From: Takakia lepidozioides
Lineage: Eukaryota > Plantae > Bryophyta
Length of the DNA: 64,000 nt
Assembly: GCA_030704615.1 (NCBI GenBank)
Contig: CM060734.1
Location: forward strand, 45,260,001-45,324,000
Reading direction: 5' to 3'
Numbering within the stretch: position 1 is the first letter of the stretch; each line of letters starts with the position of its first letter. The position numbers and the translations under genes were made by a program. The notes under the pieces are model-generated. The model had not been told where the DNA came from. It saw only the letters and a program-made list of their open reading frames with translations, and did not search any database. Positions 1-44,321 of the stretch are shown here, in pieces.

Positions 1-409
1 CTTTGGTGGCAAAGCTGAGAACTGGACTTGGGAATGCGAGCTTTCATTGTGTGAAAGATTGAAAGACCAAGCGAAAGGGCTGATTTGGCTTGGGGCAAAT
101 CAGTGCACTTTGTGGAGTATGGTGAGATTGGGTTTCAATCTCGAGCTTCAGCATTGAGAGGGCTCTTGTCATGGCAAGAGCAGGGCTGGAACAGGAGCTA
201 AGAGGTGCGGCAAGGCCATGGAATGTGCACCTAGGGTTTCAAAGCTTGGAAGAAGAGCTCTTGCACCACAAGAGAAGTGTCTTGTGGCTGGAAATGTAAG
301 CCTTAGGGTTTCAGGAGCTTGGCAAAGGATGTGGAGTGCTTAGTCTTGTCTTAGAGAGCATCAAGGAGCCAAGGAGCCAAGATAGGGGGCTGATATCTCT
401 TGTGTGAAG

Positions 410-790
410 AGGTTGCATGTGTGGAGCATGTATCCAGCTCATTGAAGCTTCCATCTTCAAGCTTGGAGGGCAAACAAGGAAGAGGGAAGGGCTGACTTCC
501 CTTATGTGAGGGCAATGCATGTGTGGAGCATGCTATCAGCCTGGTGAAGGCTTGCACTTTCAGGTGTGGGAGTGCAAGAAAGGAAGGAAGGGGCTGGTTT
601 CCCTGTAGGGCATGTGGAGCATGCTTTCAGCCTGATGAAGCTTGTATTTTCAGGTTTGTGGGTGCAAGAAATGAAGCAAAGGAGCTGATTCTCTTATGGT
701 GAGAGTGGGGCATGTGTGGAGCATGCCTTCAGCCCATTGAGGCTCTTGTTTTCAAGCTTTAGAGAGCTAGAACGGAAGGTCTAGGGCTGG
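410..790 (+). repeat. Imperfect ~100-bp tandem repeat (~4 copies)
   Basis: Core CATGTG(TG)GAGCATG...CAGC recurs at ~417, ~518, ~611 and ~711. Confidence 0.6.
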
Positions 791-1233
791 TTTCCACTTG
801 GAGTGAAAGAAAGCACTTGTAGGGCCTATGTGAGTTGGGGTTTCAACTTCAAGCTTGAAGGGAGCGCAACTCTTGAAGCAGCAGGTGTAGGGGGCTGGAA
901 TAGGCTCTAAGACAGATGCTATGGCCAAGGAGAGTGCTTGAATGAGTGCTCACAAGAGCTGGGAACCAGTAGGGCTTGGTTGTTTGCCATTGAGTTTAGT
1001 GGCGTGTTTGGGGAGGCTAAGTGAGAAAGAAGGCTTGGTTTGTGGCAACCACCTCATGGCTTAGGGCTACTATGGTGGTGTGTGGGAGCCGAAAGAGCAA
1101 GAATACCTTGCTGATTTACTCACAGCCGCCATAGCTCGGTGGAAAGAAGCCTAGAGTCCAAGAGACACAAACCCTAGCTTGGCGTGGCTAAACCCCTTAG
1201 AGAAATGGCTAAACTGCCAGAGCGGCCATGGAT

Positions 1234-2290
1234 GGGGCTGTGACGGGCTGTGCGGGGCTGTAACAGGCTGTGCCCAGTGGCCTGTGGGGCTGTGGCGGGC
1301 TGTGCCCTGTGGCCTGTGGGGCTGTGACGGGCTGTAACAGGCTGTGGCGAGCTGTGACGGGCTGTGCGGGGCTGTGACAGGCTGTGCCCAATGGCCTGTG
1401 GGGCTGTGACGGGCTGTGCCCAGTGGCCTGTGGGGCTGTGACGGGCTGTGAGGGGCTGTGACAGGCTGTGCCCATGGCCTTTGGGGCTGTGATGGGCTGT
1501 GAGGGGCTGTGACAGGCCGTGCTTGAGGCCTTTGAGGCTGTGAGGGGCTGTAAGGGGCTGTGACAGGCCGTGCCTGAGGCCTTTGGGTCTGTGACGGGCT
1601 GTGAGGGGCTGTGACAGGCCGTGCCCGAGGCCTTTGGGACTGTGACGGGCTGTGAGGGGCTGTGTCAGGCCGTGCCTAAGGCCTGTGGGGCTGTGACGGG
1701 CTGTGAGGGGCTGTGACAGGCTGTGCCCAGTTGGCTTGTGGGGCTGTGACGGGCTGTGAGGGGCTGTGACAGGCCGTGCCTGAGGCCTTTGGGGCTGTGA
1801 CGGGCTGTGAGGGGCTGTGACAGGCCATGCTTGAGGCCTTTGGGGCTGTGAGGGGCTGTGTCGGGCTGCGCCGGTGGCCTTCAGGGCTGTGAGGGGCTGT
1901 GCCGGGCTGCGCCGGTGGCCTTCGGGGCTGTGACGGTTGTGAGGGCCTGTGCCGGTGGCCTTCGGGGTTGTGACGGGCTGTGAGAGCCTGTGACGGCCTA
2001 TGCCGATGGCCTTGGGGCTGTGATGGGCTGTGAGGGGCTGTGACAGGCCGTGCCTGAGGCCTTTGGGGCTGTGACGGGCTGTGAGGGGCTGTGACAGGCC
2101 GTGCTTGAGGCCTTTGGGGCTGTGACGGGCTGTGAGGGGCTGTGTCAGGCCGTGCCTGAGGCCTGTGGGGCTGTGACGGGCTGTGACAGGCTGTGGCGAG
2201 CTGTGACGGGCTATGAGGGGCTGTGACAGGCTGTGCCCAGTGGCCTGTGGGACTGTGACGGTTGTGACCAGTGAGCTGTGTGGGCTTGTG
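1234..2290 (+). repeat. G-rich minisatellite: 10-bp (C/G)GGGCTGTGA units in ~39-51 bp higher-order repeats
   Basis: Directly visible. The 51-bp unit gives a 17-aa repeat (HGLSQPLTARHSPKGLR) in antisense ORF 1174-2373. Confidence 0.95.
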
Positions 2291-3005
2291 ATGGTCTGTG
2301 GTGGCCCGTGTTGATCTGTGGACGGCCTGTGCTGACTCGTGGAGGCACTGGTGGACTGCCTAAGGACTGGCATGTGGTCTGGAAGGCCAAATTTTGAAGC
2401 TCGTGGAGGGCGGTTTGAGGAGTATCTTCATGATATTCCCATGGTCATGCAAGTGAGGGAAGAGAGGAGAGGAAGAGTGTTGGGATGAGGGCATGTTGGG
2501 GTTAGGCATTGCTTTAGCTTCTCTTCCTCGTAGTTTCCACCCTCTCATTAGGCCAAGACCTTTCCGTAGGTGGAGGCAAGAGTCAGTCCGGGTTTGGGCT
2601 GGGGTGTCCTTGCAGGAGCAACACCGTGGAGTTGTTTTTGGTGTGGGGGAGTTGTCGTTCTGATTTCTTGTGTTTGGATCTCCTCCATACCTGCATGCTT
2701 GACTGTGCGCCATGCTAGTTTTGTGTGGGCGCTTGTTTTTATAGGTGATTGGTCCGGATTTGATCACCGGCCAGTCCTAGAGCATGATGTCGATGGTGAG
2801 GCTGGGGTGATGACCAGCCAGACCATCATTGTTTCTCCTGTGGTGAGGTTGGAGGTGATGACCAGCCAACCATAGGAGTGCTTGCGGTGGATGCAGGTAC
2901 AGGTGTAGGCTATGTTATGAACTTAGTATTCCAAACCATAAGCCGCAACAGGTTCTCTACCCGGTTACCTTGTGGAGAGGGGGTTAGGGATATGTTCATG
3001 ACCGG

Positions 3006-4250
3006 TTGAGTGTCAACACGGAGGTGCCACTAGTTGCTGGGGACAGTGCCGGTTTGAGCACTAGCGATACTAGTGGGTACACGAGACGAGGTGTGCGGTT
3101 TAGGCCACCTTCACCTCCTGTGTCTTCCACGGAAGGTTCTGATTCGGATTGTGAATCAGGAGGACTCATACCGGCGGTGCAAGTTGTTTCTTTGCCATTG
3201 TTGTGGGACACAATGGAGGAGATGTATGGAGCTACCAAGGGGCCACGAAGGTACTCTGGGGCAGTGGGCACCATCGAGTTGGATGATTTTATCCAAGAGT
3301 TTGATAGTTGGTGTGATTTGCAGCAAATGCGCAATCCACAACTATTTACGCCGTTCATGGCATGGAAAGGGCTGTTTCAGCACCTTGAAGGGCCGCCTAT
3401 GGATGATTACCATGAGTTCAGGCGGGGGCATGAGGTTGAGATCGAGGAGTGGAGGATGTACTGATCACCCGACTATGTCTCCATCACTAGGGGCACTAGA
3501 GCCACGAGGGCAGTGGCTACACCTGCCGCTGCAAACCGGCAGCTTCAGCAAGTAGCAGTAGAACTAGTGGACTGGTGGTACAGTAGCTACGACGTCCACC
3601 CAAGCCACTACCGCACCAGCACTAGCACCTGTGCCTGCCTTCAACCCTGTTGTGGAGTTCTTCGAAGAGTTGAGAGGGAACTACCAAGGGGTGAGGACAG
3701 AGAAGTTGCGGAGCTTGCAAGAGTTCCAACGAAAGCCAACCGAGAGCTTGAGGGAGGCTTTCACTCGCATGAGGCGCTTGATAAATGTAACCCAAGGGGT
3801 TACGAAGCTCAGGCAGTCCAATTCTGGTATGGGATATTGGACAAGGAGCTGAGGAGAAGGGTGCGGGATGCAACTCTCCTACAAGCGGCCCAACCCACCT
3901 TAGCAAATGTGTTTTTGCTGGCAAAGCGGATAGAGCTCAACATGGTGGAACGAGTGGTCATGGTGGGATTTGCTAAGGAGACACCACGGGGTAGTGGTGC
4001 TCCTAGCCAACCACTACCTCAACGTGCTCAAGGCAACAAGGGGGCTCAGGTGAAGCTCAGGGAATGGCAGAGAGGACCTCAGATGCAGGGGTCTCTCCCT
4101 TCATTTGCTGGCCAACAACGGGCGGAGGTGGTGTGCTGGACATGTGGAGGACCCCATGTCAAGAAGGATTGCCCAGAGGGAGGCAAAGGGTCGGCACATG
4201 CACAGCCTGCACAGTTGCAGTGTGGGCATTGTGGCGTGGGGAGGCAAGCC
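3006..4250 (+). pseudogene. Retrotransposon gag (frameshifted) with CCHC-like zinc knuckle
   Basis: Gag-like blocks (ELDDFIQEFDSW; LQEFQRKPTESLREAFTRM; AVQFWYGILDKELRRRV) split over ORFs 3006-3464, 3631-3852 and 3513-4379; knuckle CWTCGGPHVKKDC at ~4134. Confidence 0.75.
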
Positions 4251-4699
4251 GTCAGGCTAGGCTTCCTCAGTCATTCACATTGGCGGAGACAGTGTCGACG
4301 CCATCCATGGCACCTAGTTCTCGCCCGACGGTTACCGAGGCGGAGGTTACTATGCCATTGGGGAGAGCTACACGGGTAGCACCACTACCTAGTGTTGCCA
4401 AGACTGCGGCAGCTAGTGTGCTGCTAGGAGCGGCCACATCTGTGTGCCAGGCTCCATTGTTCTCGGCTACCATGATTGCGACGCAGGGGGTAAAACCAGC
4501 TGAGGTGTTCAGGCTGGCAGCTACACTCTGTGAGAGTGGGGAGGTTACTTCATCTTCTGCGGAGATAGTGGGAGATGTAGTGCCGGAAGGATCCTCGGAT
4601 TTGAGGGTCAAGACTGCCACAGCGGCGCCATGGCAAGCTGCAGCTGCCAAGTTGATGGAGCTGCCAGCTAGGCCAGCCATTGAGCGCGCCATGGTGACA

Positions 4700-5100
4700 C
4701 CTGGAGTTGTTATGTTAGACAACCAGGATGGCATTTTCTGTTTGAGTGGACCGGCAGGCAAGAGGTACCGGCCACTGCGGGTCTTGTTGGACTCGGGAGC
4801 TCAGCCATTGATGCTGTGCAGAGCTGCTATTGCAGGCTTGGGCCTCACGGAGGCGGATATGGAGCCTTGTCCTTTCCAGATACAGACGTCTCTGGGAGGA
4901 TCGGAGCAGGCTCGGGGCATGACACGGCGTGAGTTGGCTATCAGACTACGGCCGGATCACCCTACAGATGGCTCAGTGATGCGAGCCAAGGCCATTGTGA
5001 CAGACGCAGTCTCATACGATGTCCTGGTTGGTGGGGCAGTGTTGTACCACATGGGCTTCACCCTGGATTTTTGGGAGGAGTCAGCTTCCTATAGGCCTGC
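4700..5100 (+). pseudogene. Retropepsin aspartic protease domain of pol
   Basis: VLLDSGAQP (Asp codon 4790-4792) and downstream YDVLVG motif in ORF 4064-5962. Confidence 0.85.
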
Positions 5101-5509
5101 ATGGCAGTCAGGGGAGGGCCGGTGTGTGCAGCTCCCTGTGACGTTCATAGGAGGAGTTGCGGTTGCCCAGCGAGGCAAGATGCCGACACTAGCAGCATTC
5201 ACAGCGGCAGTGAGTTGGCCTAGAGAGTTGCTTGAGGGCAATGCTCATTCAGAGGATGTACCACCTCCGGGAGAGCAGGATGACATGTATGGTATGGCGG
5301 AGTTGCCTACCATGGTTGCTCAGACTCCATTGTGGGTCCATTGTGGGGCACGAGCAAGGATTTGCAGCGGGATGTTGATCGACGGGTGCAACAAGCCTGG
5401 GTGGAGGCTTTTGTACCGTCAGGAGAGGAGGAGAGTGTGGGGATTGCACCAGGACCACCTCAATTGTCTCCATTGGACGCCACACCTATTGTGTGGCAGT
5501 ATCCAGATG

Positions 5510-6480
5510 AAGGCATTTGTCTTCTGGACTTGTTTGGCGGGATCAGCACCGGATTGGCTGCTGTGTTACAAAGCAGGTGTACGAGTTCGGCGTTACCTGT
5601 ATGTGGAGAGGGATGAGACTGCACGACGCGTTTCACTTCGCCATGTTGCTCAGTTGGTGCAGCGGTACCCTGAGTTGTTGTCGGTGTCTACAATTCGTGG
5701 ATATCAGCAGGCCTTGCCAGCAGACATTTCGTTGCTGGGGGCGCAGGATTTGGAGCGGGTTGGCTCCATTGATCTGGTAGTGGCAGGTTGGCCCTGCCAA
5801 GGGCATTCATCAGCCGGGCATGGCAATGGATTGCGAGACTCGAGGTCGGGTCTGTTTTGGGAGATGGTGCGGGTTTTGCGCCACTTGCAGCTTCATCAAG
5901 CTGTATCTCCAGCATACATCTTGGAGAATGTGCCACTGATGGGCATTCTCGGGCCAGGGTGATGGCCAATGTGCATCAAGTCCGGTCGTGGCTTGGGTCA
6001 GCAGTGTTGCTAAATGCAGCTACAGTGGGGTCACGGGCTCATCGTCCACGGCTATGGTGGACTAACTTGATGCCACCCGCACTGCTCAAGCGTGCATTTG
6101 ATGGGGTGCAGCGGCCAGCACATCTCACAGTGGATAACATTCTGGACACAGGGAGGCAGTCTCAGCGTGTGAGACACGATGACCGTTCGCCTTTGGCAAT
6201 GGTCAACAAGGTGGGTCAACCACGAGCAGCATTACCTACACTGCTCAGCTTCCCACGATCGCATGCTTTCCGGGATAGTGGACCTGGCCTCCTGTGGGAT
6301 GCTCAGTTGCAGCAGTTAGTGGAGCCTAATGCTGACGAGCGTGAGCGGGCAATGGGTTTTACCACTGGTACCACGACGGTGTCGTCTCTTTCTGAGGCAT
6401 CACGTCGTCAAGTGTTGGGGCAAGCAATGGATCTCAATTGCTTGACCTGGATTATTAGCTTGGCTCTGGCTGAGCAACGC
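5510..6480 (+). pseudogene. C5 cytosine DNA methyltransferase domain (DNMT3-like) embedded in Gypsy pol; 2 frameshifts
   Basis: Linear motif order: I LLDLFGGIS (ORF 5332-5616); II YVERD, III ADI, IV AGWPCQG, VI ILENV (ORF 4064-5962); VIII AHRPRLWWTN, IX ERERAMGF, X RRQVLGQAM (ORF 5788-6762). Confidence 0.9.
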
Positions 6481-6899
6481 AGAGTGCGGAGTACACTTCC
6501 CTCAATGGTCTCTCTGCCTACCGAGATGGTACAAGCAGTGAGTGGGGGCGAGCATGTGAGGACCACGGGGTGCATGCATCCATGGCACACGTGGGAGGTG
6601 CTCGAGGTTCAGAGGGAGTTGGCAGCCAAGGCGGCTGTGATGGATGAGGTTGGGGATTCTTCTCGGGTTGAGGAGATCCTCAAGGATGAGATGATGGGGC
6701 AGGATGAGGCCTTGTCATTGACTGAGCAGGCAGGGAGTACTGCTCAAGAGGTTGCAACATAGCAACCACTGGACGCGTCCTCTACCTCTAAGCCCACTGG
6801 ACTTAAGGTTGCAGTTACGGAGGACAATTGGGAGCCTGACATTGGACCCATTGTCACCGGAGGAGAGAGACGACGTATACGGCGGTTCCTGAGGGCTTA

Positions 6900-8250
6900 T
6901 AGGAATTGCTTTGCCTTCAGTTTGAAGGACTTGGGAGCACTGAAGGGTCAAGAGATCCGTATTGAGTTGGCCACTGATACGCCAATCTTTCGGAGACCCT
7001 ATAGATACAGTGACATGGAGAGGTCTTTGATTCAGATGAGGACTCAAGATCTCTGGGAGGCAGGTTTGGTGGAGCTCTCTGGTGGAGAGTATGCTTCAGC
7101 CACAGTGATGCCAGCCAAGAAGGATGTCTATGGCAATTGGACGGAGAGACGTATGTACGGTGATTACCGGCCTGTAAATCGTCAGACCAAGTCCGATAAG
7201 TATGCCATGCCAACACCAGAGGAGATCTTTGATGCCATCGGGCATGCTAAGGCCTTTAGCACTTTGGATTTACGATCCGGATATGAATCAAGGAGGCGGA
7301 CAAGCAGAAGACGACATTCTGGGGGATCAATGAGCACGGCAAGGATTGCCTATATCAATGGCGGTTCTTACCATTTGGGCTTAAGAATGCGCTTGCAAAG
7401 TTTCAGAGAGTCATGGATAGGATTCTAGCAGGGGTGGACTTTGCTCGGTGCTACATAGATGATATCATCATCTTTAGTGTTACGATGGAGGAGCATGAGA
7501 GACACCTTCAGGTGGTATTGGAGCGCTTGAGAGCGCACGGATTGAAGTTGCATCCGGGAAGTGCAAGTTTTTCAACAACCAGATTGAGTATCTGGGTCAC
7601 ATGATATATCCTGGAGGATTGGGGGTACAGCAGACTAAGGTAGAGGCCATTGCACAAATTCCACGCCCCACAGATGTGAGCCGAGTTCGAGCTTTCATGG
7701 GGTTGGCAAACTATTATAGACGGTTTGTCAAGGGATTTAGTACCATTGCAAAGGCTCTAACCAAGCTGACCAAGGTGGACCAGGAGTGGCAGTGGGAAGA
7801 TAAGTAGGAACGAGCTTTTCAAGAGCTCAAGGCGAGGTTGACCTCGGCGCCTATCTTGAGACGACCTATCAGGGGGCGTCCCTTTCAGCTGCATACGGAT
7901 TGGAGCATGCTGGGGCTTGGAGCGGTGCTCACACAGGTGGATGATGAGGGAAGAGAGTTCGTAGTGGCTTACGCTAGCCGCTCGAACAACGTTGTAGAGG
8001 CTAAGTACAGCTCATATGAGGGAGAGTGCTTAGCTGCAGTGTGGGCCGTGGCACACTTCAGGTGCTATCTATACGGCAATCTTTTCACCCTTGTCACGGA
8101 TCACCAGCCACTCAAGTGGTTGATGGAGTCAGACAAGCTTACGGGGAAGCTTGCACGGTGGGCACTTATACTCCAGAAGTATGACTTTCAGGTTGTGCAT
8201 CGACCGGGTTTGATCAATCGGGATGCGGATGGATTGAGTCGCAATCCATG
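6900..8250 (+). pseudogene. Reverse transcriptase and RNase H of Gypsy pol (frameshifted)
   Basis: PIFRRPYR, RMYGDYRPVN, FSTLDLRSGY, YIDDIIIFS, FMGLANYYRRFV, TSAPIL, FQLHTDWS, YSSYEGECLA, TDHQPL, ADGLSR. Confidence 0.95.
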
Positions 8251-8599
8251 CATGAGCCAGCAGGATGACACTGGAGCTTGGTGGCATGGTGAGACGGACG
8301 AGGAGATGGTGTCGGGATGGCACGCATCTGCATTTTTGTGTATCTTAGCATCGGGAGGTCAGATTGGACCTACAACAGGGATGACTGTAGACGGAGTGTC
8401 TGAGGACCCTGAGGCTAGTGATGAGCTAGGTGGTGCCAGAGATATACATGAGGATTCGGCTGTGTTGGACTACCTCCGCACGGGAGACACGGCAGCCATT
8501 GTGACTGCCAGGGAGAGGGATCGGATCCTGCAACGAGCCAAGAGGTTCAAGTGGGAGGGGATACACCTACTTCGAGTGTGGGAGGATGGTCGGGTGAGG

Positions 8600-9700
8600 A
8601 TTGTGCCTCACCCCACACAGCGTGCACGGTTAGTGCGGCATGCCCATGAGGAGTTGGGGCATTTTGGAGTGCGACGCACTCACAGTTTACTGCAGGGGCA
8701 GTATTGGTGGCGTGGTATGCATACAGAGGTGCAACAATTCGTGGCTAGGTGCATGGTGTGTGACAGGATGCGTGCTTCATTCAACGCCCCTACACCACAG
8801 TTGCATCCTTTACCAATCATGGGATTGGGCTACAGGTGGAGTCTTGACTTCGCAGGACCGTTGCCACTGACTATGCGCCACCACAGATATGTGTTGGTGA
8901 TGGTGGAGCACTTCTCCAAGTGGATTGAGTTGGTTCCATTGCCTGACAAGGCTAGTGAGGGGGCTGCGTATGCATTCTTGGATCGTGTGCTTAGCCGATT
9001 TGGTGCTCCAGCTGAGGTACTCACGGACCAAGGGAGAGAGTTTTTGGAGGAGTTTCAGGCTTTGTGTGATAAAGCCTTGATAGACCACCGCACCACTTCT
9101 CGGGATCATCCTGAGGCCGATGGCTTAGCAGAGAGAGTTGTTCAGACGGTGAAGAGGGGTTTGCGCAAGTATGGCTTGCAGAAGGGACACCTAGGAGATT
9201 GGGATCTTCAGGTTCCTTGGTTAGCCATGGGCTACAGGTTCAGCAAACAAGCATCACTTGCCTCCTTCTCACCATATTTCCTTCTCTTTGGCCGAGAGCC
9301 GGATTTGCCTGCAACCATTCGTAGGGACACTGCTTAAGTCCTTAACCTTGACGATCCCGACGTGTGGGTACGTGCATGTGATCAGCGTGCAGAGTTGTTC
9401 AAGAAAGTGATGCCCATGGCTTTTGAGAACCTTGCCATTGCACAACACCGTGATACGTTGAGGTATGCCACTATACGTGGTGGAGGATATCGTCCTGGGG
9501 TTCGGAGGTTTAGCCCTGGTGACTATGTTTATTTGCAGCAGACTGCTCCTACGACTCTGGATGTTCCTGCAGGGCGTGTTATTCTGAGGGTTCGAGAGGT
9601 GTTGCCCTCAGGGGTCCTGATCTTGGAGGGTTAGGATGGCATGACTTGGAAGGACCATGTGCGTAATTGTGCGCCATGTCACCTTCCCAATGTCGATGGC
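8600..9700 (+). pseudogene. DDE integrase of Gypsy pol
   Basis: H-x4-H...C-x2-C zinc motif (HEELGH...CMVC), SLDFAGP, TDQGREF, DGLAERVV, SPYFLLFGREP. In-frame stops at 9335 and 9632. Confidence 0.95.
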
Positions 9701-9735
9701 ACCCAAACTTGGCAGTGGTACATGCAGGTTTGAGG

Positions 9736-9879
9736 TGCATGCTCTGTGGGTCTGCCAAAGGGGCAGCCACCATGCTGGTGTGTGATCGATGCTCAAGGGG
9801 TTGGCATATGGGATGCTTGGCACCACCTCTTGAGAAGGTTCCTGACGGAGATTGGTTGTGTCCACACTGCTTGGAATAG
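9736..9879 (+). pseudogene. PHD finger (C4HC3) at C-terminus of integrase
   Basis: CMLC...MLVCDRC...WHMGCLAPPLEKVPDGDWLCPHC in ORF 9667-9879. Confidence 0.9.
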
Positions 9880-10139
9880 TGGCAGTGGACATGACTGGAG
9901 GCAGCTAACAAGACATGGGAGGCCAAGCTCATAGAAGTCAATACATGAGATCCCAAGCTCAAGTTCACAGGTTGCAAGACGGCGACTAACGATGGGGCAA
10001 CTCTTGCACCCGGCCTCTTGATCTATCGAGTTTGAGTGTAGTAGGGATAGTGGTGGAGGACTTAGTGAGGCTATGGTCACTATCACATCTTGTGGCTACC
10101 TGGACTTAGAGGGACCTAAGCACCAGCTAGGGGGGCGAT

Positions 10140-10832
10140 TGTGTGGACTAATGACTGCCATAGTGGCAGCCTAGTGACTGACTAGTTGTAGCCTAGTGGT
10201 TGGACTAGTGGCTGGACTAGTGGTGGACTAGTGGTATACTAGTGTGTGGTGTGCACATGTGTTGTGTGGTTTTGGACAGCGATGTAGTTGTGTAGCGATA
10301 TGTATGCGCATGACAGCTGTCAAGTTATTTTACCACTAGTGTGAAACTAGCTAGGAAATAGCTAGCTTTTACATATTGACATTTGGGATTGGCCCAAGTG
10401 TCAATCCAGGGGTCAAGGCAGATTTAGGCCCTGGAGTGGTTATCTTCACGGCAAGCGCGGAAGGCTCATCTTTCTCGAGTTGAGCCTCAGCGCGCCTAGC
10501 TATGGCGCCGTAGTATGGATTCCCCATGGCGTGGGGTGCACTTGGCTTGACTTGTATTTGAGTGATAAGGTTATATATGCATGAGTTTATGCTTCAGCTT
10601 TGTGAGCTCGCATGAGCTTGTGCTTGTATTCTTCTTCGTTATCATTGTGTGGACTAGTGACTGCCATAGTGGCAGCCTAGTGACTGACTAGTTGTAGCCT
10701 AGTGGTTGGACTAGTGGCTGGACTAGTGGTGGACTAGTGGTATACTAGTGGTATACTAGTGTGTGGTGTGCACATGTGTTGTGTGGTTTTGGACAGCGAT
10801 GTAGTTGTGTAGCGATATGTATGCGCACGACA
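10140..10832 (+). repeat. 3' LTR region with A-B-A' structure (A 10140-10315, A' 10646-10832)
   Basis: Near-identical ~176/187-bp direct repeats, each TG...CA and rich in ACTAGT. Follows PPT-like AGCTAGGGGGGCGA. TATA-like TTATATAT at ~10571. Confidence 0.8.
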
Positions 10833-11050
10833 GGGGTTTTATGTTTTTAAATCGCGGTCATAGGAGCTATATGTTTTCAAAATGGAATAAAACCCCAGAA
10901 CCCTAACGCAAAATAAATGTATATCTACAAGCTCCAAGTTCCATATATCTATAGCTTTGATACTCTACAAAAGATTAACACGTTAGAGAAAAACAAAGTC
11001 ACAATAACCAACACCATCCAAAACACACAAATACCAAACAATAGTTGCAC

Positions 11051-13188
11051 TTTGGGTTACTTGTTGGAGGTTAACCCTGTAGTGAGGGGCCTTCAAATGC
11101 ATGGCTTCAGAGCTGATGCTGCCCTTCAGATCAAAGATTCTATGTTTGTTGATGACACCTTTATCGTGCTTCAGGATGAGCCTGCGGCCCTGCAAGCAGC
11201 CCAATGCACGATTGACACCTTCTACAAGGTATCGGGTTGAAGGTGAATTGGTCGAAAACCAAGGCTCTTCAGGTGGGGGATATTTCAAAGTCTGGTCTGG
11301 GGGTCTCCCCCGTATGGGGGGCAAACTTGGGTTTGATCTGGCTCAAGGATGGAGAGTCCACCACCCTCTTGGGCCACGTCTTCAGGAGTAATCTCTCGGA
11401 AGACCAACGTCTTGGGCCCACTATAGCCAGGCTGAAGGGGCAACTAACCTTCTAGGGCTCTCGGTTCCTCTCCATTACTGGGAGGGCTGTGGTGGCTAAC
11501 CAAATCCTTTTGGCCGGTACTTGGTATTTCGCCTCTACTTGGAGTCCTAGCTCTAAACATATCCACGAAATCAAAAAGTGTATTAGGAACTTTATTTGGG
11601 GGGCCCATTCGTTGGACTCTAACAAACGCCCCCAATTTTCTTGGATTCAAATCATAATGCCCAAGAAAATGGGTGGCCTCGGTGTCTTGGATCCTGAAAC
11701 CCAGATCAAAGCCCTGTTGGGAAAATGGCTCCCCAGATTCCTGAGTCCAGAACGGGGTTGGTGGAAAGTTATGGTGATAGATTATATTTTCCTCAGTTCA
11801 CCCCTGAATTCCACTCAATGGTCTCCATCTCTGAGATGGATCACTCAAGGTTATTGTCATAAATCCCTTGGCTCCTCCTTTTGGACCTCTATTTGGTTGG
11901 TTTGGGGGAAGTGCCGACCCTTCCTGCGAAAAAGAGAGCCTGCTTCCTTCTGTGAGGTGCTCAGGCAATACCTGTTCCTCAACAAGCAAGTCCCATCAGC
12001 TATGGAGAGGAGCCAAGCCACAAGGTGGGCAGGATGGGATGCAAGGGGGCTCTCACAGGTTAGCCATCTATGGTTCAGTACCCCTATTTCTCTTTCCAGA
12101 ACTCTTGGCACCCAAAGACTCTCTGCCGGCATTGCCTCAGTTCTGCAATCACTTCCAGACTTGTGGAGAGACATGCTCAGGCAGGGCCCATCCTCTCCGT
12201 CTATATATCAGTTGGTGACCACACCCGATCATCATTTTCAAGTGATGTTCATAACGGAAGCCTCACGTGTTAACCTAGTGGGTTTCGCATTCAGTGCCCA
12301 TTCGTATACAGGTGCTTTCTCGTTGCACTCATCCGACTCTATCTCAATCCCAAATGCAAACACCCCACCAGCTAGAATCTGCCACTGGAACTCCAAGCTC
12401 AAAGATTTTAATCCATCCCTTCCATCCAACACGCGGGTTCTACCTTGGTTACGATCAGGAACCTTCATTTGGATTGGAGGCCAGGCCATCCAAATCGATC
12501 CGGCAGAATGACACTGGGAATTTGGGGACAAGATTTGCTCCTTCTTCAATTACACGACCAAGGGTGCCTACAGAGCGATGTTGAAGGCCAAACCTCTAAC
12601 CAAAAAATGGGACGACAGATGGGGCTTATTCCAATTTAGAGAGGAAAACTGGAAGTGCATTTGGGCTCTGATTTGGGAGAAATCCAAACCGGCCAAACTC
12701 GGTGCCTTTCTTTGGCAGATTGCAAATAGGGTTTTGAAGGTTGGGCAATTTCTAAACTTCCAAGAGGCCCTACTCTGCAGATGCTGCCCCATTACATTGC
12801 CTTCTTTTCTGTAAAGGGCCGTCAACAATTTGGCCCTTGGTTTGGTCACTTTACAGGGTTGGACCCCATAGCCCTCCTGCTAAATTACAACCAAACAACC
12901 AAGTCCAAGGTGTCCACATGCCCAGTTTTCGAGGCCCTCCGCTCGGCAACACTGTGGCAACACATAGCACATTAGCTCTCTGCGCTATGGCAAATCTTGC
13001 AACCAATAATAGATGGCTCTACCAAGCTTGCATGCGTAGCCAGGTCTATTTTCTTCTCTGTTATTTGATCGTTGGAATCTCCAACACGGCCTCCGTGTGT
13101 TAAGCCTCACGGCACTTGTAAGGGTTTAATTTTTTCCCTTTTTAATAAATTTTCAGGGCCTCTCAACTCTTTAAAAAAAAAAAAAAAA
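11051..13188 (+). mobile_element. 5'-truncated L1/Tx1-type LINE (RT C-terminus and downstream region), decayed
   Basis: SMFVDDT, VSG-LKVNWSKT, MPKKMGGLGV and FLWQIANR motifs. AATAAA at 13144, A17 tail at 13173-13189. TSD AGTTGCAC at 11043-11050 and 13189-13196. Confidence 0.9.
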
Positions 13189-16265: not shown

Positions 16266-17785
16266 ATGGCGCCAGCAGAGTCGAATGGGAACAATGGGGT
16301 TCTCCCCCAGAGAAGTCCGATCTCCAGGTTCGTAGAACGACCAGCAGGTCCTGCTACAGTTCTGAGTATTGCTACCGCGAACCCTCCCACCATAAATGAT
16401 CAAGCGACCTACACTGACAGAGTCTTCGAAATCTGCAATATCGGTGACGATGAGGAGCTCAAAGGCACGTTCAGACACATGAGTGAGTACCCATCAACGC
16501 TGCGCACCAGAATTCAGCAAAATTAATAGCTAAATTAAGTATGTAGCCTGTAGGGATTTAGAGGGGCCGGGCACATCCATGCACGCTGCAAATTATGCTC
16601 GATACTACTGTCAGGTCTGTTTATATTCATGAACTCGTGAAGAGTTACCGAGCTACAATTGCAGGTTAGTCAAGACATGCGGAATCGCATGTGCAGCTCT
16701 AATTAGCAACTCGATTGGCAACCATCCCTCGAGATACAGTCGGGTGATGATGGTTTTTGTGTGTGCATTGTGCAGTTGATACCTCCTGCATCAAAAAACG
16801 GCACACGTTCCTAAGTGATGAAGTACTGAAAGCCCATCCAGAGCTCTGTACCTACTGGGACACTACTTTGGCGATGCGCTCCGAGATGGCGAACTCAAAA
16901 ATCCCTGAACTTGCCAAGGAGGCAGCGGTTAAAGCAATTGAGGAGTGGGGTCGCCCCTTGACAGAAATTACTCATATGGTTATGGCAACCACGACTATGT
17001 CAGGCATTCCGGGAGCTGACCTCAAAATCGCAAGGATGCTCGACCTCCGCCCAACGGTTCAGCGCGTGTGTATGTACCAGACAGGCTGCTTTGGCGGGGG
17101 CGCCGTCATGCGAGTAGCTAAAGATCTAGCCGAGAGCGCCAAGGGTGCCCGTGTGCTGGTTATTGCTGCGGAAGGGAACACAATCATGAATTTCAGAGCT
17201 CCAACTAAAGATACCATGTTTAAAGTCGATTTCTTTCAGGCTCATGTCACGCTTGGCGATGGCGCGGCTGCACTCATAGTAGGATCTGACCCACTGCCTG
17301 GAGTGGAGCTGCCTCTATTTGAGATGTACAGGTCAACGCAGATGTCGCCGCCCAACACAGAGAGCGCCATGACTGGAACCATCACGGAGGCAGGTCTATT
17401 ACAGCATCTCACACCAGTAGTACCCAAGCTGCTAGCTCAATACTTGCCGGAGTTTCTATCCGAAGGTCGAGACTTAGTTGGTTCCCCTGACTGGACAGAC
17501 ATGTTCTGGGTGGTGCACCCGGGCGCATACAGGATTCTAGAGGTGGTGGCCGAAGTGATGGGCTTACCAAAGGAGAAGTTGCAACCCAGCTGGGACACTC
17601 TCGAAAACTATGGTAACATGTCCAGCCCAACTTGCTTGTTTGTGCTGAATGAGCTGCGGAACCGCTCCAAAAGGCTCGGGGAATCTACCACAGGAGGGGG
17701 TTGCGAATGGGGCGTCCTCCTCGGTCTCGGTCCCGGATTCAACATGGAGTTCACCCTTCTGCGCAGCGTGCCATTCACTTCCTGA
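16266..17785 (+). CDS. Type III polyketide synthase (chalcone synthase superfamily, divergent); exons 16266-16482 and 16776-17785; 408 aa
   Basis: GPATVLSIATANP; catalytic Cys (YQTGCFGG), His (VHPG) and Asn (YGNMSS); GLGPG. Single GT-AG intron at the conserved CHS position; spliced length 1227 nt is in frame. Confidence 0.95.
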
Positions 17786-18129: not shown

Positions 18130-19030
18130 AGTCCATCCCCATTAAATCTGGAATTGCCCAGGATTTCATTCTGGAGACTGCACTTGTTGACATGTATGCT
18201 AAATGTGGAAACATGAAGGATGCTCGTCAAGTGTTTGACAATATGGCTAAGCGAGATGTGGTCTTTTGAAGTGCAATGATCACTGGATATGTTCAGTGCG
18301 GGTGTGGTAGGGAGGCCCTGCAACCGTTTGAAAGAATGCAACAGGAAGGCTTGACGCCAAATGCTGTCAGCTTTGTCTCTGTCCTCTCTGCATGCAGTCA
18401 TATGGGCAGTGGATGAGGGCTGTCACTACTTTGAGTCCATGAGTCAAGCCCATGGCCTCAACCCTACTCTGGAATATTTTGGCTGCATGGTGGACCTTTT
18501 TGGGCGTGCAGGGCGGCTGGATGAGGCAGAGGATCTCATTGACAAAATGTCAGTTGAACCGGGTGCTTTGTTGTGGAAGGCATTGCTTGGTTCCTGCAGA
18601 ATTCATGGCAATCTGAAAGTAGCAGAGCGTGTGGCAAGAAGTCTTCTCAATTGGGATCCACTGGATGGTGCAACTGGTGTGCTGCTACAGAATATGTATG
18701 CTGTTGCCAGTAGCTGGGACGATACAGCAAAGGTGACAAAATGATGCAGAACAGAGGTGTCACAAAGGAGCCTAGGTGCAGGTGGACTTCCGGATGCATA
18801 TATTTGTTGCAGAAAAATTGCGTCCACAAATGAAGGAAACCCACGCCGAGCTAAGGCGACGTCTTAGCAAATAATGGAGGCTGGATACTTGCCTGGCAGA
18901 TGAATTTTGTTGTACAATGTCAAGGAGGAGCAACAGTGTTTCTCTCTTTGCCTCCAAAATGAGAAGCTGTTTGGCCTGAAACCTCTCCATGTCATCAAGA
19001 ACCTCCAGGTGTGTGGTCACACCCTCCCCT
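18130..19030 (+). pseudogene. PLS-class PPR (E/E+/degenerate DYW) pseudogene fragment
   Basis: LVDMYAKCG..DARQVFD, SAMITGY, FVSVLSACSH, CMVDLFGRAGRLDEA, WKALLGSCRIHGN, KEP..W, AGYLP, IKNLQVCG. Interrupted by stops and frameshifts. Confidence 0.85.
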
Positions 19031-24290: not shown

Positions 24291-25568
24291 CAGTGGATGG
24301 ATGATAGTAAGCCTCCTCAACCTCTAATTTCAGAGCAGCCCTACCGAGCATTCGACGTGTCAGCCCCTGATTGTGTCTGAGCAGGCCGGCCACTAACCGT
24401 GCGGTATGAATTTTGGATGACGATTCGGAAAACGTGGATGAACATCGTTTAAAGCCTGGTTCGCGCGTGCTGAATACCATGTCCTTATTCATCCCCCTCC
24501 CGCCCGCTACAGGACGTGGTAGATTTAGGGGAGGCTGCGAGCCGTGGATCTTCACTAGCACGTCGATTACAGCACGTCGATGCAAGGTACGGTCACGAAG
24601 ACATGCACATTTCGTAGTCATCCACATACAGCGTAGATACGGCGGATGACAGGTCTAGTGAGTGCTAATGAAAGTGTGACACGGTGGCGAGCAGCCTCCC
24701 CTCAGATCTACGACGCGGTCCCAACACATGGCATCCGATTGTTGCATGCGATAAGTAAGGCCCAAGTTGTATGGGCATCCCAAAGAATCGCCCCGAGATC
24801 GAATCACATGAGGGCTGCGTCCATGGAGACATTGTAAGGAAGAGGATGAGGGTCGATAGCATTGTAGCAATTCGACAGGATGTGATTGAATCCTCCAGCC
24901 TCCAGGATCTAAAGAAACAAACAGTTTATTTTGGTGGTGCCCGAAATTACTGACTGTTTTCGAAAGTTTGGGCTCACAAACGGTGGCCATTTGGAAGTGC
25001 AGGTCGTCTCTCTCTCTCAGCGGGACCTCAATCTTCCTTTCCGTTTGGTGAGTGGGATGCATGTAAGTGATGGTTGTTTATGTTGTGAAAAGACGCATGG
25101 AATTTTGGTTGCATTCTACAGTGTTCGCAGCTTCCGACTTCGCTCGGATGGGATTGCTTCCACAATGGGAATGAGCGTGGAATTTGTGGTATGACGGGTT
25201 CAAAAAGCAGTATGATGAAGGAAATCAAAGCGTATCCTGCCCAATATGCCCATTGAGCTTTGCCAGGTAACCCACTGTGTATGAGTATGAAAAGCACTGT
25301 ACGAATATGTGCCTCCCATGTTCACTTCTAGTGTCATTGGATTAAAGACTCTCACTGCACCTTCTTTTGCATAGGTTGTGAAGCTTGAGATTTCCGCAAT
25401 GCAAGCGAAATTTAGAACAGCCAAGTCACATCTAAATGCTTCTTGTCAACAGAAGTTGCAGCTTTCCTACCTTCCTACGATTCCCTTCTGTTCCTCTCCT
25501 AATCAGACTATATGTTGCTACTACTTGACTACTGGAATTCAGTGCAACAAAAGTGAAAACAGGAAACC

Positions 25569-28500
25569 ATGGACAACCACAAGAATATGGGGCTCCCCGC
25601 TTTTGAGTGCCCACCTGGCCTTCCATTCTCAGCCAGCTGCCCATCAGAAATGTACAGAGTCCAAGGCCAGAAAGCCATCATGGGCACCTGTGACCTCTGG
25701 ACAGATGGATTGCTATGTGCATATGAGTTCGTACCAGCACTAAAGAGCAAGTTCAAACTAGGGGGTGTTTTCGGGCAGAAAAGTGGGCCTATGCAAGGAA
25801 AATTTAACGCCGAAGTTACAGTGCAAGAATCACAAAATTTTGAACTCGGGGCACCAGGCCAGGACCACTTTGGCAGGCACTTGGAGGAAAATCCTGTTAG
25901 GAACAGTGAAGATCTGTTGGAAAATACAGAAGAGAGGAATGGACGGTCACCGCATTTGGGGCATGGACACATTGAAGAATTGCGAACAAGACAGGGCAAT
26001 ACACAGGATCTGGATGCTGATTTAGTTCCGGGTCATGCATGGGAGCAAACTAGGAGAAAGGAGAAAGGGAGCCATTGGGTCCCCATTGGTTGGGCTCGAC
26101 TGAGTGAGCTTGTTCAGACTGTACAGGTCAGCGTCTTTTTTCTTTTGCATTTGGGTTGTTTTCCGCAAAATCACGGTTCCTTGTGGAGAGTGTGAAAGAG
26201 TTATTTCAAAGTTTTCCTACTGCTGGATACACCGAAGTGTGCGTATTCGGTGAGCAGAGTTTGCAGGCACAGGGAACCCAAAGGCTCCCTTTTGAGAGAC
26301 ATACAGTCTCATTTCTCTGGCTGTCTAATCGACAGAGTTCGAGTGCAATCTTCACCCTCTATGTCAAGCCAGTGAGGTAAAACCAAAATGATTTTGCTAA
26401 GGATGATAGCTCCGTTTTGGACCTGACAACATGGAGCAAACTGATGTTCATGGAGCTTCTTGTTTTGGTTTTGTTTTCCCTGTGCTGCCCTATAGATGTG
26501 ATTACATACGATCATGACCAACTGTCAACCAAGCTTACCATACTGAACTGCCTCAATTTGCAGGTTGATGCTGAGTGGCAAATAGAGGAGCCACCTTCTG
26601 AGAACGACGATACGCTTAGCGTTGCTGATCTGGCAACCCCTTACTGGCAGTCACGAGCTGGACCAACATGGTGGTGTCATGTGGATGCACGGCACCCACA
26701 TATTCTGGCATGGCTTGCAAATGCAAACTGGCTGCACCCTGCCATCAGTGCTGCCCTTCGTGATGAGAACCGTCTTATCAGTGACCGCATGAAATATCTC
26801 TTTTATGAGGTTCCCTCATCTCTCTTATGATTGCCTACTGCTTTCAAGTTGTGCTAATTGAAGGGATGAGCATGGAGTTCCTATAATCTTCACATTCACA
26901 ACCTGAATGCTCTATGGATGAAACTGGGTGGCCGGGCAGGTACCAGTGCGTGTGGCAGGGGGTCTGCTGTTTGAGCTTCTTGGTCAGTCTGTTGGGGACC
27001 ACAATGAAGATGTGCCAGTAGTCTTACGAGCATGGCAAGCCCAAAATTTCTTAGTAACCTCGATGCATGTCAAGGGATTCATTCGTAACCTCAATGTGCT
27101 TGGGGTTATGGAAGTTCAGGTAAGTTGGATACACATCTCTTTTCAGTGTGGAGAGCTTGAATGGGAATTTGGCTTGTTGCTGTTTCCTTTGATGATGTAA
27201 AAGGTCATGTCAGCAATTTCATAGTTCTTAAAACCAGGGAAAGGATTCTTTGGTGGTAGTACTTGTGAGTTAACTCAGACGAAAATTTTCAGGATCTAGT
27301 TGGTGCAGGTGGAACTGAAGCGCCAAAATCTGTGCACGAAGTTATCGCCCAACTGGCTGGTAGCCTTGCCAGCTGGGATAATCGGTAATTCCACTTCTCT
27401 CTCTCTATCTCTGCACGAGGCTGTCTATGTTAGAGAATCTCTTGAAGAATTGACTTTGGGCTGCTTCTTGAGGGTCCCCCTTTCTTCTGTCCCATAAGCT
27501 CAAGTTTCTTTTCCTTCTTTCTATGTATATATGTATATACATCTCTCTCTCTCCCTCCCACTCCCTCTTATGCTCAGTCTGAATCGGGATGCAGTGGCTA
27601 TTGCCACAAGGCTACTGCAAGCAAAGTCTGAAGAGTCTCTTTCTGTCCCATAAGCTCTTTGGGCTTTCTGTCGACAGTATGAAATTCCTTTCTTTCTCTC
27701 TTTCTCTCGCTTTTATCTCTTCTTCCTGACATTGAATAGTTGTTTGTGGGCTTCTTGTTGGAGGTCCCACATTCGTTCTTTTGTCCCATGAGCTCTTTCA
27801 GCTTTCATTTCATTTCTCTTTTTCTGTGTGTTGTGTTTTTCTTTGTGTTAAATGAACAAGACCCCAGGGTCAGACTTCATTACAGAACCTCTTCACATAA
27901 CACCTTAGCAAAGCTGAGAGAAGCCACAAAGTGAACTAAAGAGGCCAGCATCCCTTCAAAGTCAAAGTAGAAGTCCTTGGAAAACAAAAGAAACCCAAAC
28001 TTCCAGAAGGAACTTGCAGCACAAGCTACCTCCACCGGCCCATCTTGGCACTGGAAGCCGCCCAAGCTTACATTATGAAGGGAACTGGCCTGAAGCTATG
28101 GGGATTGCATCATGACGAGAATCTGTCAAAAGCCTCCAGGATACAAGACCTTGTAGAGGCTTCCTGTGCAGGGTCCACACCTGTCAGGCATATCACACAT
28201 CTTCTCTCTCTTCTCTGTTCCGCTCAAACTGGGCGCGGGGCAATGGCCACAAGGCTACAGCAAACGTCTTATAAGTACATTCTCTCTCTTCTTTCTTATA
28301 AAGTACCGTTTCATTTCATTTCTCTTTTTGAAAACTCTCCAACTCTGAAAATCTTGAGTCTGAGCCTAAAGCCCTGGCCTGTTGGGGTCTAGTTGCTGGG
28401 CTGCTCACACATAGCACGTTGATACTTGTGTGAAGGGATTACTAGAGGATATCTGGAAAACCTGACTAATTGTAGTTATCAAGGTAAGTCGGTCTACTGG

Positions 28501-30221
28501 GGTGAGCACCTCCCTCACACAGGTAGTATCTGTTCCCTTTTGTTCTGCCCAAACTGGGCGCAGGGTCTATGCCTACGGCAAACAATGTTGTATGAATACA
28601 TTCTTCTCTCTCTACTTCTGTCTCCATGTCCGTCATGAGGGCTTTTCAACAGAGCATCTTGTTCCTTACATGAGATCCAGGCAGAATGTCGTTTTAGAGA
28701 TTCCTCATCCCTAGCATAAGCCTTCAGCTACAAGGAACTGGAGTGCTCCTTACGCAGATGGTGCTCTTTGTCTTCACGGAACGTTTGGGGGTCAGATTTC
28801 AATTTGGTGGTCCTACTGTGTGCCATTGGTCCCCCTAGGTCTTCATATTATTGTGATTGTAGGTGATGATCAGGTGCTTGGGGTGCAGACTTTTTCGCAA
28901 AAACTATTTTGGTGCAGCGGATGAAGTTGAACTCAAATTTGTAAACAGGTATGTCAAGTTGCCTCAGAGCTAGATCTCCGATTTGTAACGCTTAGTAGGG
29001 GAGGACTGTTTTCACAAAGGGTTCCTACTCTATCCCTTGTGCTGCATGCGATTAGGCAATAATGTGGCAAGAACACTGCAGGAGAGCAAACGAGGACCTG
29101 ACACTTTTGAGCATCATACTCAATCAGGAGATTCGTCGCCTTGCTACCCAGGTGATTATGTCAACTACGTTGAAAGCTTTGAAAGCTTGCATCTCTACTC
29201 TTATTGGTTTGTTTATATAAGAGCTTCCACTTTCCTGATTCATAGAACATGACAAGTTGCTGTACATAGTCTAACCAGAGCTCCAGCATCTCAATGGAGA
29301 GAGAGAAGTACTACTCGACATTTGCTATGATGCGCATAGATCCGAGGATTAAAACTCCTCAAGCTGATTGGGCATCCAGCCCACCATGGAATGTGACATG
29401 GCTCACTACTAGGGGAAGCTTTGAGCTGTGGGGAGTCTAAGAACGAAAGGAACTGTCATGGGCTTGAATACAGTGGTCCTTGGGCGTTTGTTATTTCATC
29501 CAAGTCTTACCGTGGAAACACAGGTGATAAGAGTAAAATGGTCCCTGCATGCAAGGGAGGAGATTGTGCATGAGCTGTCAACACATTTGAAAGGCAAAGA
29601 TACATTGAGAATTTTGGATCGTGTTCGGCAAAGCACAAGGGATATGTTAGATGAGCAAGAAGGGGCACGAAACCGTCTGTTCACTGTTCAGGACGTGATG
29701 CAAAGTAATGTACGCGCATGGCTGCAGGTACTCTCCCCACCTGTTGTATCCACTCAGCAATCCCTCTATCTTATTTGCTATTTCTCTTCCCTATTCTTCT
29801 TGGTCCCACGTATACTGATTCCACTGATTGTCCTTTGCAGGAAAAGAGTATTAGAGTCCAACATAACCTTGCTGTGATCGGAGGTGGGGGCCTCTTGCTC
29901 TCAGTTTTAGTGGGCCTCTTTGGCATCAATGTGGATGGCATTCCTGGCCAAAAAAATTCACCCTATGCTTTTGCAATCTTCTCAGCGTGTCTAGTGCTCT
30001 TGGGAGTTGCTGTGATTGGTCTTGGAGTGGTGTATCTGGGCATGAAGAAGCCTCCCACTGAAGAACAAGTTACCTCCCGAAAGATAGAGCTACAGGAGTT
30101 TGTGAAAACATTTCAGCGAGCAGCCGAAGCCCATGAGAATGTCAGAAATCTGTCTTCGAATGATGAGGAGGATGTGGCTCTAAATACTAGCCTAGACAGG
30201 GATTACATCCTTATGGCTTAA
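25569..30221 (+). CDS. Plant CorA-like (Mg transporter-like) family membrane protein; exons 25569-26126, 26564-26809, 26940-27119, 27293-27384, 28889-28948, 29082-29151, 29524-29727, 29841-30221
   Basis: Blocks DLWTDGLLCAYEFV, HWVPIGWARLSELVQ, GPTWWCHV, VPVRVAGGLLFELLGQS, NQEIRRLATQVIRVKWSLHAREEI; two C-terminal TM helices with GLFGINVDGIPG (GxN loop); GT-AG introns. Start codon uncertain. Confidence 0.85.
27900..28620 (+). mobile_element. LINE 3' fragments inside intron 4 of the CorA-like gene
   Basis: Two copies of the CAAACTGGGCGC.GGG...AAAC...ATGAGTACA-like tail plus TC run (~28244-28290, ~28555-28612), matching the 3' end of the LINE at 36003-36300. Confidence 0.7.
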
Positions 30222-33886: not shown

Positions 33887-33934
33887 CGCAGCCACAACTC
33901 GGACCTCTCTATCCTCTCTCCTCACACCATCCAC

Positions 33935-33952
33935 CCCTAACCCTAACCCTAA
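33935..33952. promoter_or_regulatory. Telo-box-like (CCCTAA)3 just upstream of the KRI1 ATG
   Basis: Three CCCTAA hexamers ~50 bp from the start codon. Confidence 0.4.

Positions 33953-34848: not shown

Positions 34849-44321
<9,473 letters not shown>

Follow-up and report, generated by a model that had tools for sequence, protein, structure and literature searches.

The 64,000-nucleotide stretch of Takakia lepidozioides DNA analysed here (the window) contains a decayed copy of a Ty3/Gypsy-type retrotransposon family, very abundant in this host, which encodes a DNMT3-type C5 cytosine methyltransferase (DNMT) domain under purifying selection. The model favoured as a whole is that of a Gypsy family in which the DNMT closes a Gag-protease-DNMT reading frame (ORF1) ahead of a leaky stop, would be packaged at close to Gag levels, and would methylate newly made DNA; taken together, this model is considered probable.

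The element and its methyltransferase domain

The order Gag, protease (PR), reverse transcriptase (RT), RNase H (RH) and integrase (INT) of the DDE type, obtained from Pfam and motif mapping, fits Ty3/Gypsy. The parts of the window copy are listed below in window coordinates.

1237..2313, + strand: tandem-repeat tract, units of ~51 and ~114 nt (window repeat search)
3213..4234, + strand: gag, capsid part and CCHC knuckle (from 4134); broken by a stop and frameshifts
4784..5120 (right end approximate), + strand: aspartic protease, LLDSGA at 4784-4801; aligns to the protease of relatives
5527..6470, + strand: DNMT3-type C5 cytosine methyltransferase, motifs I-X linear; broken near 5572 and 5944
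6760..6768, + strand: in-frame stop closing ORF1 and its UAG-CAR-YYA context, TAG CAA CCA; predicted read-through site
6829..7800, + strand: reverse transcriptase, YIDD at 7452-7463 (RVT_1, E 2.3e-17); broken near 7285 and 7555
7877..8182, + strand: RNase H (RT_RNaseH, E 8.8e-35)
8612..9139, + strand: integrase zinc finger and DDE core (Integrase_H2C2, E 4.4e-16; rve, E 2.3e-14)
9736..9870, + strand: PHD finger at the integrase C-terminus (PF00628, E 1.7e-12)
10127..10139, + strand: polypurine-tract-like site (PPT); the CTAGGGGGG(C/T)G motif is also found ahead of repeat B in relatives
10140..10315, + strand: repeat B, copy 1; 93% identity to copy 2 (10644-10833 in the alignment)
10311..10322, no strand: palindromic B/A junction TGACA-GC-TGTCA; predicted integrase cleavage site
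10318..10644, + strand: repeat A, lying between the two B copies; a 5' copy is predicted left of the window
10646..10832, + strand: repeat B, copy 2, the 3' terminus of the element, ending in GACA; the ends of relatives share this motif beside a 4-bp target duplication

The window gag is 44-46% identical to the Marchantia proteins P0005/P0007, and its Retrotrans_gag match (E 0.0015) is under the family cut-off in Pfam; the Asp_protease_2 match to the protease is weak (E 0.05). Private stops of this copy lie at 3464, 7802-7805 and 9632. The tandem-repeat tract is probably part of a long 5' leader of the element. GC skew is positive from window position 1 to about 11000, and contigs of the family cover the window from 2300 on. 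The 5' terminus probably lies left of the window; sequence comparison found no copy of repeat A in window 1-3100. In the putative leader, three copies of a 61-64 nt block are present at 387-795, with spacing of about 100 and 190 nt. In single contigs of sequencing run X1 a segment of 423 or 444 nt bounded by GT and AG is missing, from 2452 to 2876 or 2897; with sides of 24-28 nt these contigs are a weak indication, and may possibly be copies of spliced RNA.

Several other features were observed in the window. A chalcone-synthase-like type III polyketide synthase occupies one long open frame at 16751-17782 (+), and a PPR fragment with an E motif lies at 18355-18741 (+). Two LINE-like elements were found at 11100-12800 (+) and 36736-39437 (-), the second with Pfam matches to endonuclease and RT. 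Dispersed repeats at 22-37 kb and at 60 kb have a common motif of 42-54 nt in both orientations. A KRI1-like gene (31650-34012, -) and a MAP-kinase-like gene (40217-44534, -) were also recognized, together with a multi-exon host gene at 25557-30218 (+), which may encode a CorA-type transporter.

An earlier note, made from the sequence, had described a DNMT motif series between protease and RT, on the same strand and without introns. By six-frame reading and motif mapping all seven C5-methyltransferase motifs were located, in linear order and without introns, at 5527-6429:

5527-5544, + strand: motif I, DLFGGI
5603-5614, + strand: motif II, VERD
5786-5800, + strand: motif IV, GWPCQ
5921-5932, + strand: motif VI, LENV
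6037-6066, + strand: motif VIII, AHRPRLWWTN
6337-6360, + strand: motif IX, ERERAMGF
6403-6429, + strand: motif X, RRQVLGQAM

The search against Pfam DNA_methylase that had been proposed as a check gave a match on the single-frame piece 5573-5944 (PF00145, E 8.5e-13, 48.8 bits, cut-off 22); the pieces 5350-5577 and 5941-6759, each taken singly, matched no Pfam family. With the piece 5941-6483, 95 proteins were found at E<=0.001 among 1674 candidates, with identities of up to 76%. The frameshifts that the note had placed at ~5570 and ~5945 were recovered as frame switches near 5572 and 5944 against Marchantia proteins, and a third was seen near 5300-5340, between the protease and motif I, in the same comparison. 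The breaks at 5572 and 5944 belong to the window copy, because sister contigs differ in length there.

The DNMT3-like, non-permuted character of the domain was borne out by both profile and structure. In a search of the PDB with a profile of 31 sequences, DNMT3A/B ranked best (E 9e-23), followed by DRM2 (E 1.6e-11 to 4e-10); the bacterial enzymes, with HhaI at 2e-6, and DNMT2 ranked after DRM2. The AlphaFold model of the intact domain of the relative L058 (pLDDT 90.4) gave DNMT3A/B/C in all 32 structural matches listed (best E 7e-19, target TM 0.83). Identity as a plant DRM was ruled out; motifs I-X are linear and not circularly permuted, and DRM2 scores far under DNMT3A. The catalytic Cys of motif IV is present in 77 of the 78 sequences aligned, the Glu of motif VI in 78/78 and the Arg of motif VIII in 74-75/78. 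From this conservation and the modelled fold, the domain is very probably catalytically active in intact copies.

Breadth of the family and selection on the domain

Contigs of four runs were mapped onto the window, of which X1 and X3 derive from one sample. In run X1, 96,389 contigs map onto window 2300-10900, and the summed depth, which is not a copy number, is 0.80-1.21 million in the DNMT bins and 0.87-1.37 million over RT-integrase. The best matches listed for the C-terminal half of the DNMT are from Calypogeia fissa (76%), Marchantia polymorpha (many models, 61-72%), Riccia and Sphagnum. That the window copy alone captured a host DNMT3, or received a nested insertion, is extremely improbable: family depth is even over the DNMT, named proteins of liverworts and mosses carry the domain at the equivalent site, and RT and DNMT trees match. 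Nothing in favour of such a single event came to light, and none of the three findings by which the earlier note would have been refuted was obtained.

A profile search of 1.84 billion representative proteins gave 541 matches at E<=1e-30; Klebsormidium nitens, Closterium, Cymbomonas and Scenedesmus were named among the 20 that were looked up. Two positions of the DNMT occur in 242 proteins, one ahead of RT and one between RNase H and integrase; the full order RT-RH-DNMT-INT-PHD is found in 30 of them, and Gag-PR-DNMT without RT in 21. In a second large clade (P0080, P0083, P0138 and others, among them Scenedesmus 'pol' proteins) a related, DNMT3-like domain occupies the interval from RNase H to integrase, and a PHD the C-terminus; no description of it was found in the accessible parts of the literature compared. 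In the RT tree this layout is present in 45 of 63 elements, and the two layouts are split by a branch with 99% support. The separate RT and DNMT trees that the earlier note had proposed were built by quick searches and include no host DNMT3 as outgroup; the nested groups to which the window belongs are seen in one tree as in the other. K. nitens is a single row on a long branch at a fork without resolution in the DNMT tree, which is without a host DNMT3 outgroup.

Among the long-ORF relatives L057-L059, dN/dS is 0.07-0.15 for the DNMT and 0.10-0.14 for the protease; in the pair L057-L058 alone it is 0.04 for RT and 0.02 for integrase. For pairs with the window the DNMT value is 0.10-0.16, near saturation. 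Values below 0.2 among L057-L059 place the DNMT domain under purifying selection; neutral values would have spoken against the reading of the earlier note. In mostly decayed moss-type copies the DNMT has median dN/dS values of 0.38-0.67, with 0.33-0.74 in the remaining domains; raised medians are expected after insertion.

Several annotated Marchantia 'genes' are ORF1 of this element family (Mp4g09160, Mp8g17980 and Mp6g11220), one of them annotated as DNA cytosine methyltransferase. One protein of the family, P0038, is filed under a bacterial bin (Candidatus Obscuribacterales), likely by contamination. In viral contigs 43 pattern matches were obtained, none of which was confirmed.

The stop codon ahead of the reverse transcriptase

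The DNMT frame of the window copy closes at TAG 6760-6762, and RT continues in the same frame past CAA CCA. For a survey of this junction 80 metagenome loci were used, 67 of them with an RT match and 65 covering the RT start. A stop followed by CAR is present at the homologous site in 51 of these 65 loci (44 distinct at 99%), which are not independent because most are decayed near-relatives of one moss-type group; it sits 17, 18 or 24 codons ahead of the RT anchor. In another 6 loci the stop is not followed by CAR, and the last 8 lack a stop there. As background, 77 stops occur in 7934 RT codons, with CAR after 3 of these, and the chance of any stop in the junction span is about 0.17. The full CARYYA context is found in only 4 of the 51 loci (L057, L058, L059, and L047 with TAA); the other 47 have CAR and lack YYA. 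UAG-CAR-YYA is exact in the window, L057, L058 and L059, with the frame kept downstream. In 46 of the 51 the stop is followed by CAA CCC, with an ATG three codons past the stop, and the junction of the moss-type group reads TAG/TAA CAA CCC ATG. The intact relative L058 consists of two same-frame ORFs, Gag-PR-DNMT, then TAG CAG TTA, then 1047 codons of RT-RH-INT-PHD.

According to the earlier note, the DNMT lay inside one continuous pol, in which case TAG 6760 would be a decay mutation of a dead copy. The other private stops of the window copy are in keeping with this, as are the continuous DNMT-RT frames of the L072-L080 subfamily, where the junction stop is absent in all 7 loci, and of Closterium and some unnamed relatives. 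Against it stand the 51 of 65 loci compared with the chance value, the rarity of CARYYA, which follows just 8 of the 5958 stop triplets in the window, and the proteins of Calypogeia, Marchantia and Sphagnum, which (as protein sequences only) stop 96-100 residues past motif X. A decay mutation is thus very unlikely. The placement 'inside pol' does not hold for the window's clade, because the conserved stop separates Gag-PR-DNMT from RT-RH-INT-PHD. The stop is not required family-wide, since 14 of 65 loci, including all 7 of L072-L080, are without stop and CAR. It looks like a derived trait of a sub-clade with 99% support in both trees, because L072-L080 and Closterium do not have it. The L072-L080 elements, with their continuous DNMT-RT frame, have the same B-A-B end and palindrome and lend themselves as a natural control for what the stop does.

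How ORF2 is translated can be read in two ways. With good probability it is read-through, and not another route, that yields ORF2. The Type I read-through motif UAG-CAR-YYA was defined for TMV (PMC3542737), in which about 10% read-through fixes the ratio of short to long product (PMC2754532). Experimental proof of such sites in plants is limited to viruses, with rice gypsy elements as candidates (PMC3542737, PMC2754532); the family described here differs in that it would have an enzyme at the end of its short product and in that a large moss-type group has CAA CCC. A 3' RNA stimulator past the stop received no support in the four sequences folded (z-scores of -0.78 to -1.0 in 4/4).

In the other reading the stop is a true ORF end, and RT-RH-INT-PHD is made by reinitiation at a near ATG or from a spliced or sub-genomic RNA. 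Reinitiation is possible in the CAA CCC group and in L057, because an ATG or Met follows closely past the stop (the first Met of ORF2 is residue 14 in L057), and the Marchantia gene models P0003, P0004 and P0015 join DNMT to RT with the linker skipped. These joins vary between the models, as is expected of prediction artefacts; the first Met of ORF2 is residue 117 in L058 and residue 85 in the window, in both cases already within RT; and the frame is preserved over the stop, with CAR after it in three divergent groups. This reading is considered unlikely, and even under it the DNMT would still be on the abundant Gag-side protein. Under the favoured read-through model, RT-RNase H-integrase-PHD would be produced at a fraction of the Gag level, and the DNMT at the Gag level.

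Split termini, related systems and proposed function

The 3' end of the window element has the order PPT, B, GC, A, B. Relatives with both ends preserved are arranged as A-coding-B-A-B or A-coding-B and do not have two matching full LTRs; in the moss-type group B is followed by A in 8 loci and by other DNA in 9. A segment equivalent to A is repeated at the 5' end in six relatives (L002, L034, L061, L066, L069 and L071). Perfect 4-bp target duplications flank 5 of 7 distinct complete insertions of relatives, the other 2 having 3 of 4 bases, and in both repeat forms they lie outside the start of A and the end of B. TG...CA termini and 4-bp target duplications, as in Ty3/Gypsy, were thus found in relatives. 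The B/A junction is identical in L057, L071 and L072, with close variants in L058 and others.

The match between the element ends and the internal palindrome suggests that integrase cuts at the B/A junction. Reverse transcription would give B+A units, and integrase would cleave the palindrome inside them; a two-unit circle cut once would become A-coding-B-A-B, and two cuts, or a one-unit circle, would give A-coding-B. That integrase cleaves the internal palindrome of circular or two-LTR cDNA, leaving CA-3' ends, is rather likely from the comparison of termini. Foamy-virus integrase cleaves the palindromic junction of 2-LTR circles (PMC1180852), so that in both cases a DDE integrase would generate processed ends from a palindrome, an activity that is predicted here. 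In foamy virus the palindrome arises at the LTR-LTR junction, whereas here it is encoded within the repeat unit, and integrated copies therefore have permuted repeats. Ordinary LTRs that were duplicated in tandem and recombined could also have produced the split repeats, with no internal cut; this alternative draws on the resemblance of B+A after the PPT to one LTR and on the fact that A-coding-B can be derived from A-coding-B-A-B by recombination of B with B. It is rather improbable, given that target duplications mark the A start and B end in both forms, that the GACA-GC-TGTC junction is conserved across divergent subfamilies and the PPT-side start of B is not, and that no complete element starts with B among the 8 loci (7 insertions) having both ends.

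No TGG-type tRNA primer site was seen by eye after A in relatives. Sequence following A is complementary to a site ~165-175 nt inside A over 16-17 nt in two relatives:

L058: 8836-8851 with 9024-9039, self-complementary pair
L071: about 1842-1858 with 2016-2032, self-complementary pair

The same comparison gave 10-12 nt in 4 other relatives and none in 2, where the span compared was misplaced. This suggests self-priming in place of a tRNA primer, presumably comparable to that of Tf1. A self-priming mechanism is described in PMC2864245.

Two further assignments based on termini or integrase were rejected. The Troyka group, considered as split-repeat kin, has ordinary LTRs with CG ends (PMC12440569), and DIRS/Ngaro/PAT identity is ruled out by the rve integrase, with no tyrosine recombinase match in either L058 ORF.

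The PHD finger is also present in ORF2 of the intact L058. The best PDB sequence matches of the window PHD are CHD4, KDM5B, KDM5A, PHF12, ATXR5, DPF3 and PHF21A. Most PHD fingers of the CHD4/KDM5/PHF12-like set bind H3 tails unmethylated at K4, and silent chromatin is accordingly a plausible, if speculative, target. Whether the PHD reads unmodified H3 tails and so steers insertion is put at about an even chance. In the pieces of the window and in L058 ORF2 Pfam detects a PHD but not a chromodomain, and identity as a chromovirus was rejected. PHD-retrotransposon fusions in cnidarians are noted in a chromatin-evolution preprint.

The charophyte precedent named in the earlier note is published: KnitGypsy-Dnmt3 of Klebsormidium nitens has a DNMT3 in Pol, DIRS-like repeats and purifying selection (de Mendoza et al. 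2018, PMC5890265). The core idea of that note was therefore already in print, and cDNA self-methylation was proposed for such elements in the same paper. Shared with the window family are the Gypsy domain set, the intronless, non-rearranged DNMT3-type domain under purifying selection and the DIRS-like layout, A-coding-B-A-B being given in PMC5890265 for its DIRS elements; K. nitens GAQ93235.1 (CCHC-PR-DNMT) matches the family profile at E 6.9e-80. KnitGypsy-Dnmt3 was described from one alga with the DNMT in the Pol ORF, whereas the family described here is abundant, has land-plant relatives and carries the DNMT on the Gag side of the stop; as the DNMT of the window's clade is not within the Pol ORF, this clade is a lineage variant and not KnitGypsy-Dnmt3 itself. 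Neither a PHD nor a stop is mentioned for KnitGypsy-Dnmt3 in the accessible text of PMC5890265, nor are target duplications or a model of its integration, though Fig. 4c of that paper may show some of these.

C5-methyltransferases are also carried by SymbioDIRS-Dnmt3 and SymbioLINE-Dnmt (PMC5890265) and by EpiLTRs (bioRxiv 10.64898/2026.05.21.726589). SymbioDIRS-Dnmt3 shares the DNMT3-type domain and split repeats (PMC5890265); DIRS elements, however, have a tyrosine recombinase and LINEs no LTR, while the window family has a DDE integrase and, in relatives, 4-bp duplications. The EpiLTR DNMTs are sister to DNMT4 and accompanied by DAM and a chromodomain (bioRxiv 10.64898/2026.05.21.726589). 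Host DNMT3 enzymes (PpDNMT3b, PMC6453930; MpDNMT3b, bioRxiv 10.1101/2021.02.12.428880), compared by description only, are likewise DNMT3-type with linear motifs; they have DUF3444 and act at CHH and de novo sites, whereas the window domain is intronless and fused to Gag-protease.

In later papers the Gypsy-DNMT3 family appears only as 'streptophytes' (PMC12344493, bioRxiv 10.64898/2026.05.21.726589), and an opinion paper assumed that land plants have lost transposon-encoded methylases (PMC6338049). The bryophyte family, its stop and its integration ends are not described among the best-ranked matches in the literature text that was searched. Nothing relevant was present in the supplement text of PMC5890265 and PMC12344493, and the accessible parts of a Marchantia sperm-methylation preprint, a Marchantia review, a plant DNMT3 paper and the chromatin-evolution preprint do not mention the family. 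What appears to be new is a branch of the Gypsy-DNMT3 lineage in land plants that combines a probable read-through stop, a PHD and permuted ends, although 'streptophytes' in the 2025/2026 papers may cover land plants.

In the proposed mechanism, the DNMT is packaged in the particle at near-Gag amounts and would methylate the new DNA of the element. That the element's protease sets the DNMT free, and that the DNMT is packaged, is quite probable; that the substrate is the cDNA, before or at integration, is only somewhat favoured. The gain would likely be that new copies arrive pre-marked and do less damage to the host, or that the cDNA is hidden from surveillance. The domain may instead be kept for another job, such as methylation of the insertion site or of host chromatin, RNA methylation, or nucleic-acid binding in the particle. 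Extra CpG depletion as a trace of self-methylation is absent from the element (CpG o/e 0.54, against 0.55 in the rest of the window), two LINE-like stretches of the window being lower at 0.37 and 0.45; this measure is confounded, as every transposon is methylated by enzymes of the host. No activity was seen in yeast for the Klebsormidium domain, a result called inconclusive by its authors, whereas Symbiodinium retrotransposon DNMT3s methylate CG de novo (both PMC5890265). The RNase H/integrase placement of the DNMT in 45 of the 63 RT-tree elements would also suit another job, while the near invariance of motifs IV, VI and VIII speaks against it, and such a job is held to be less probable, though a serious alternative. 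Among 23 hand-picked transitions in family contigs, 13 were CHH, 7 CHG and 3 CG, too few and too selected for a conclusion to be drawn. With methylation of new element DNA still the preferred reading, a wider proposal can be made only tentatively and is on balance doubtful, namely that a green-lineage Gypsy clade, abundant in living bryophytes including Marchantia, combines a Gag-fused particle DNMT3 obtained via read-through, cDNA methylation before integration, tRNA-free priming, circular cDNA cut at a palindrome and guidance by a PHD.

That retrotransposons carry the enzyme class of their silencers is a known puzzle, for which the Gypsy case has so far been one alga. With the family present in many Marchantia gene models and in mosses, the question can be addressed in a genetically tractable plant. 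From the conserved stop, predictions follow for the amount and destination of the enzyme, and the split ends lead one to expect a DDE integrase that uses another route of integration. With such ends the family is likely to be missed or misannotated by standard LTR finders, and its copies may inflate DNMT gene counts in bryophyte annotations. If the wider proposal is true, the DNMT of the Marchantia elements could also mark the host genome.
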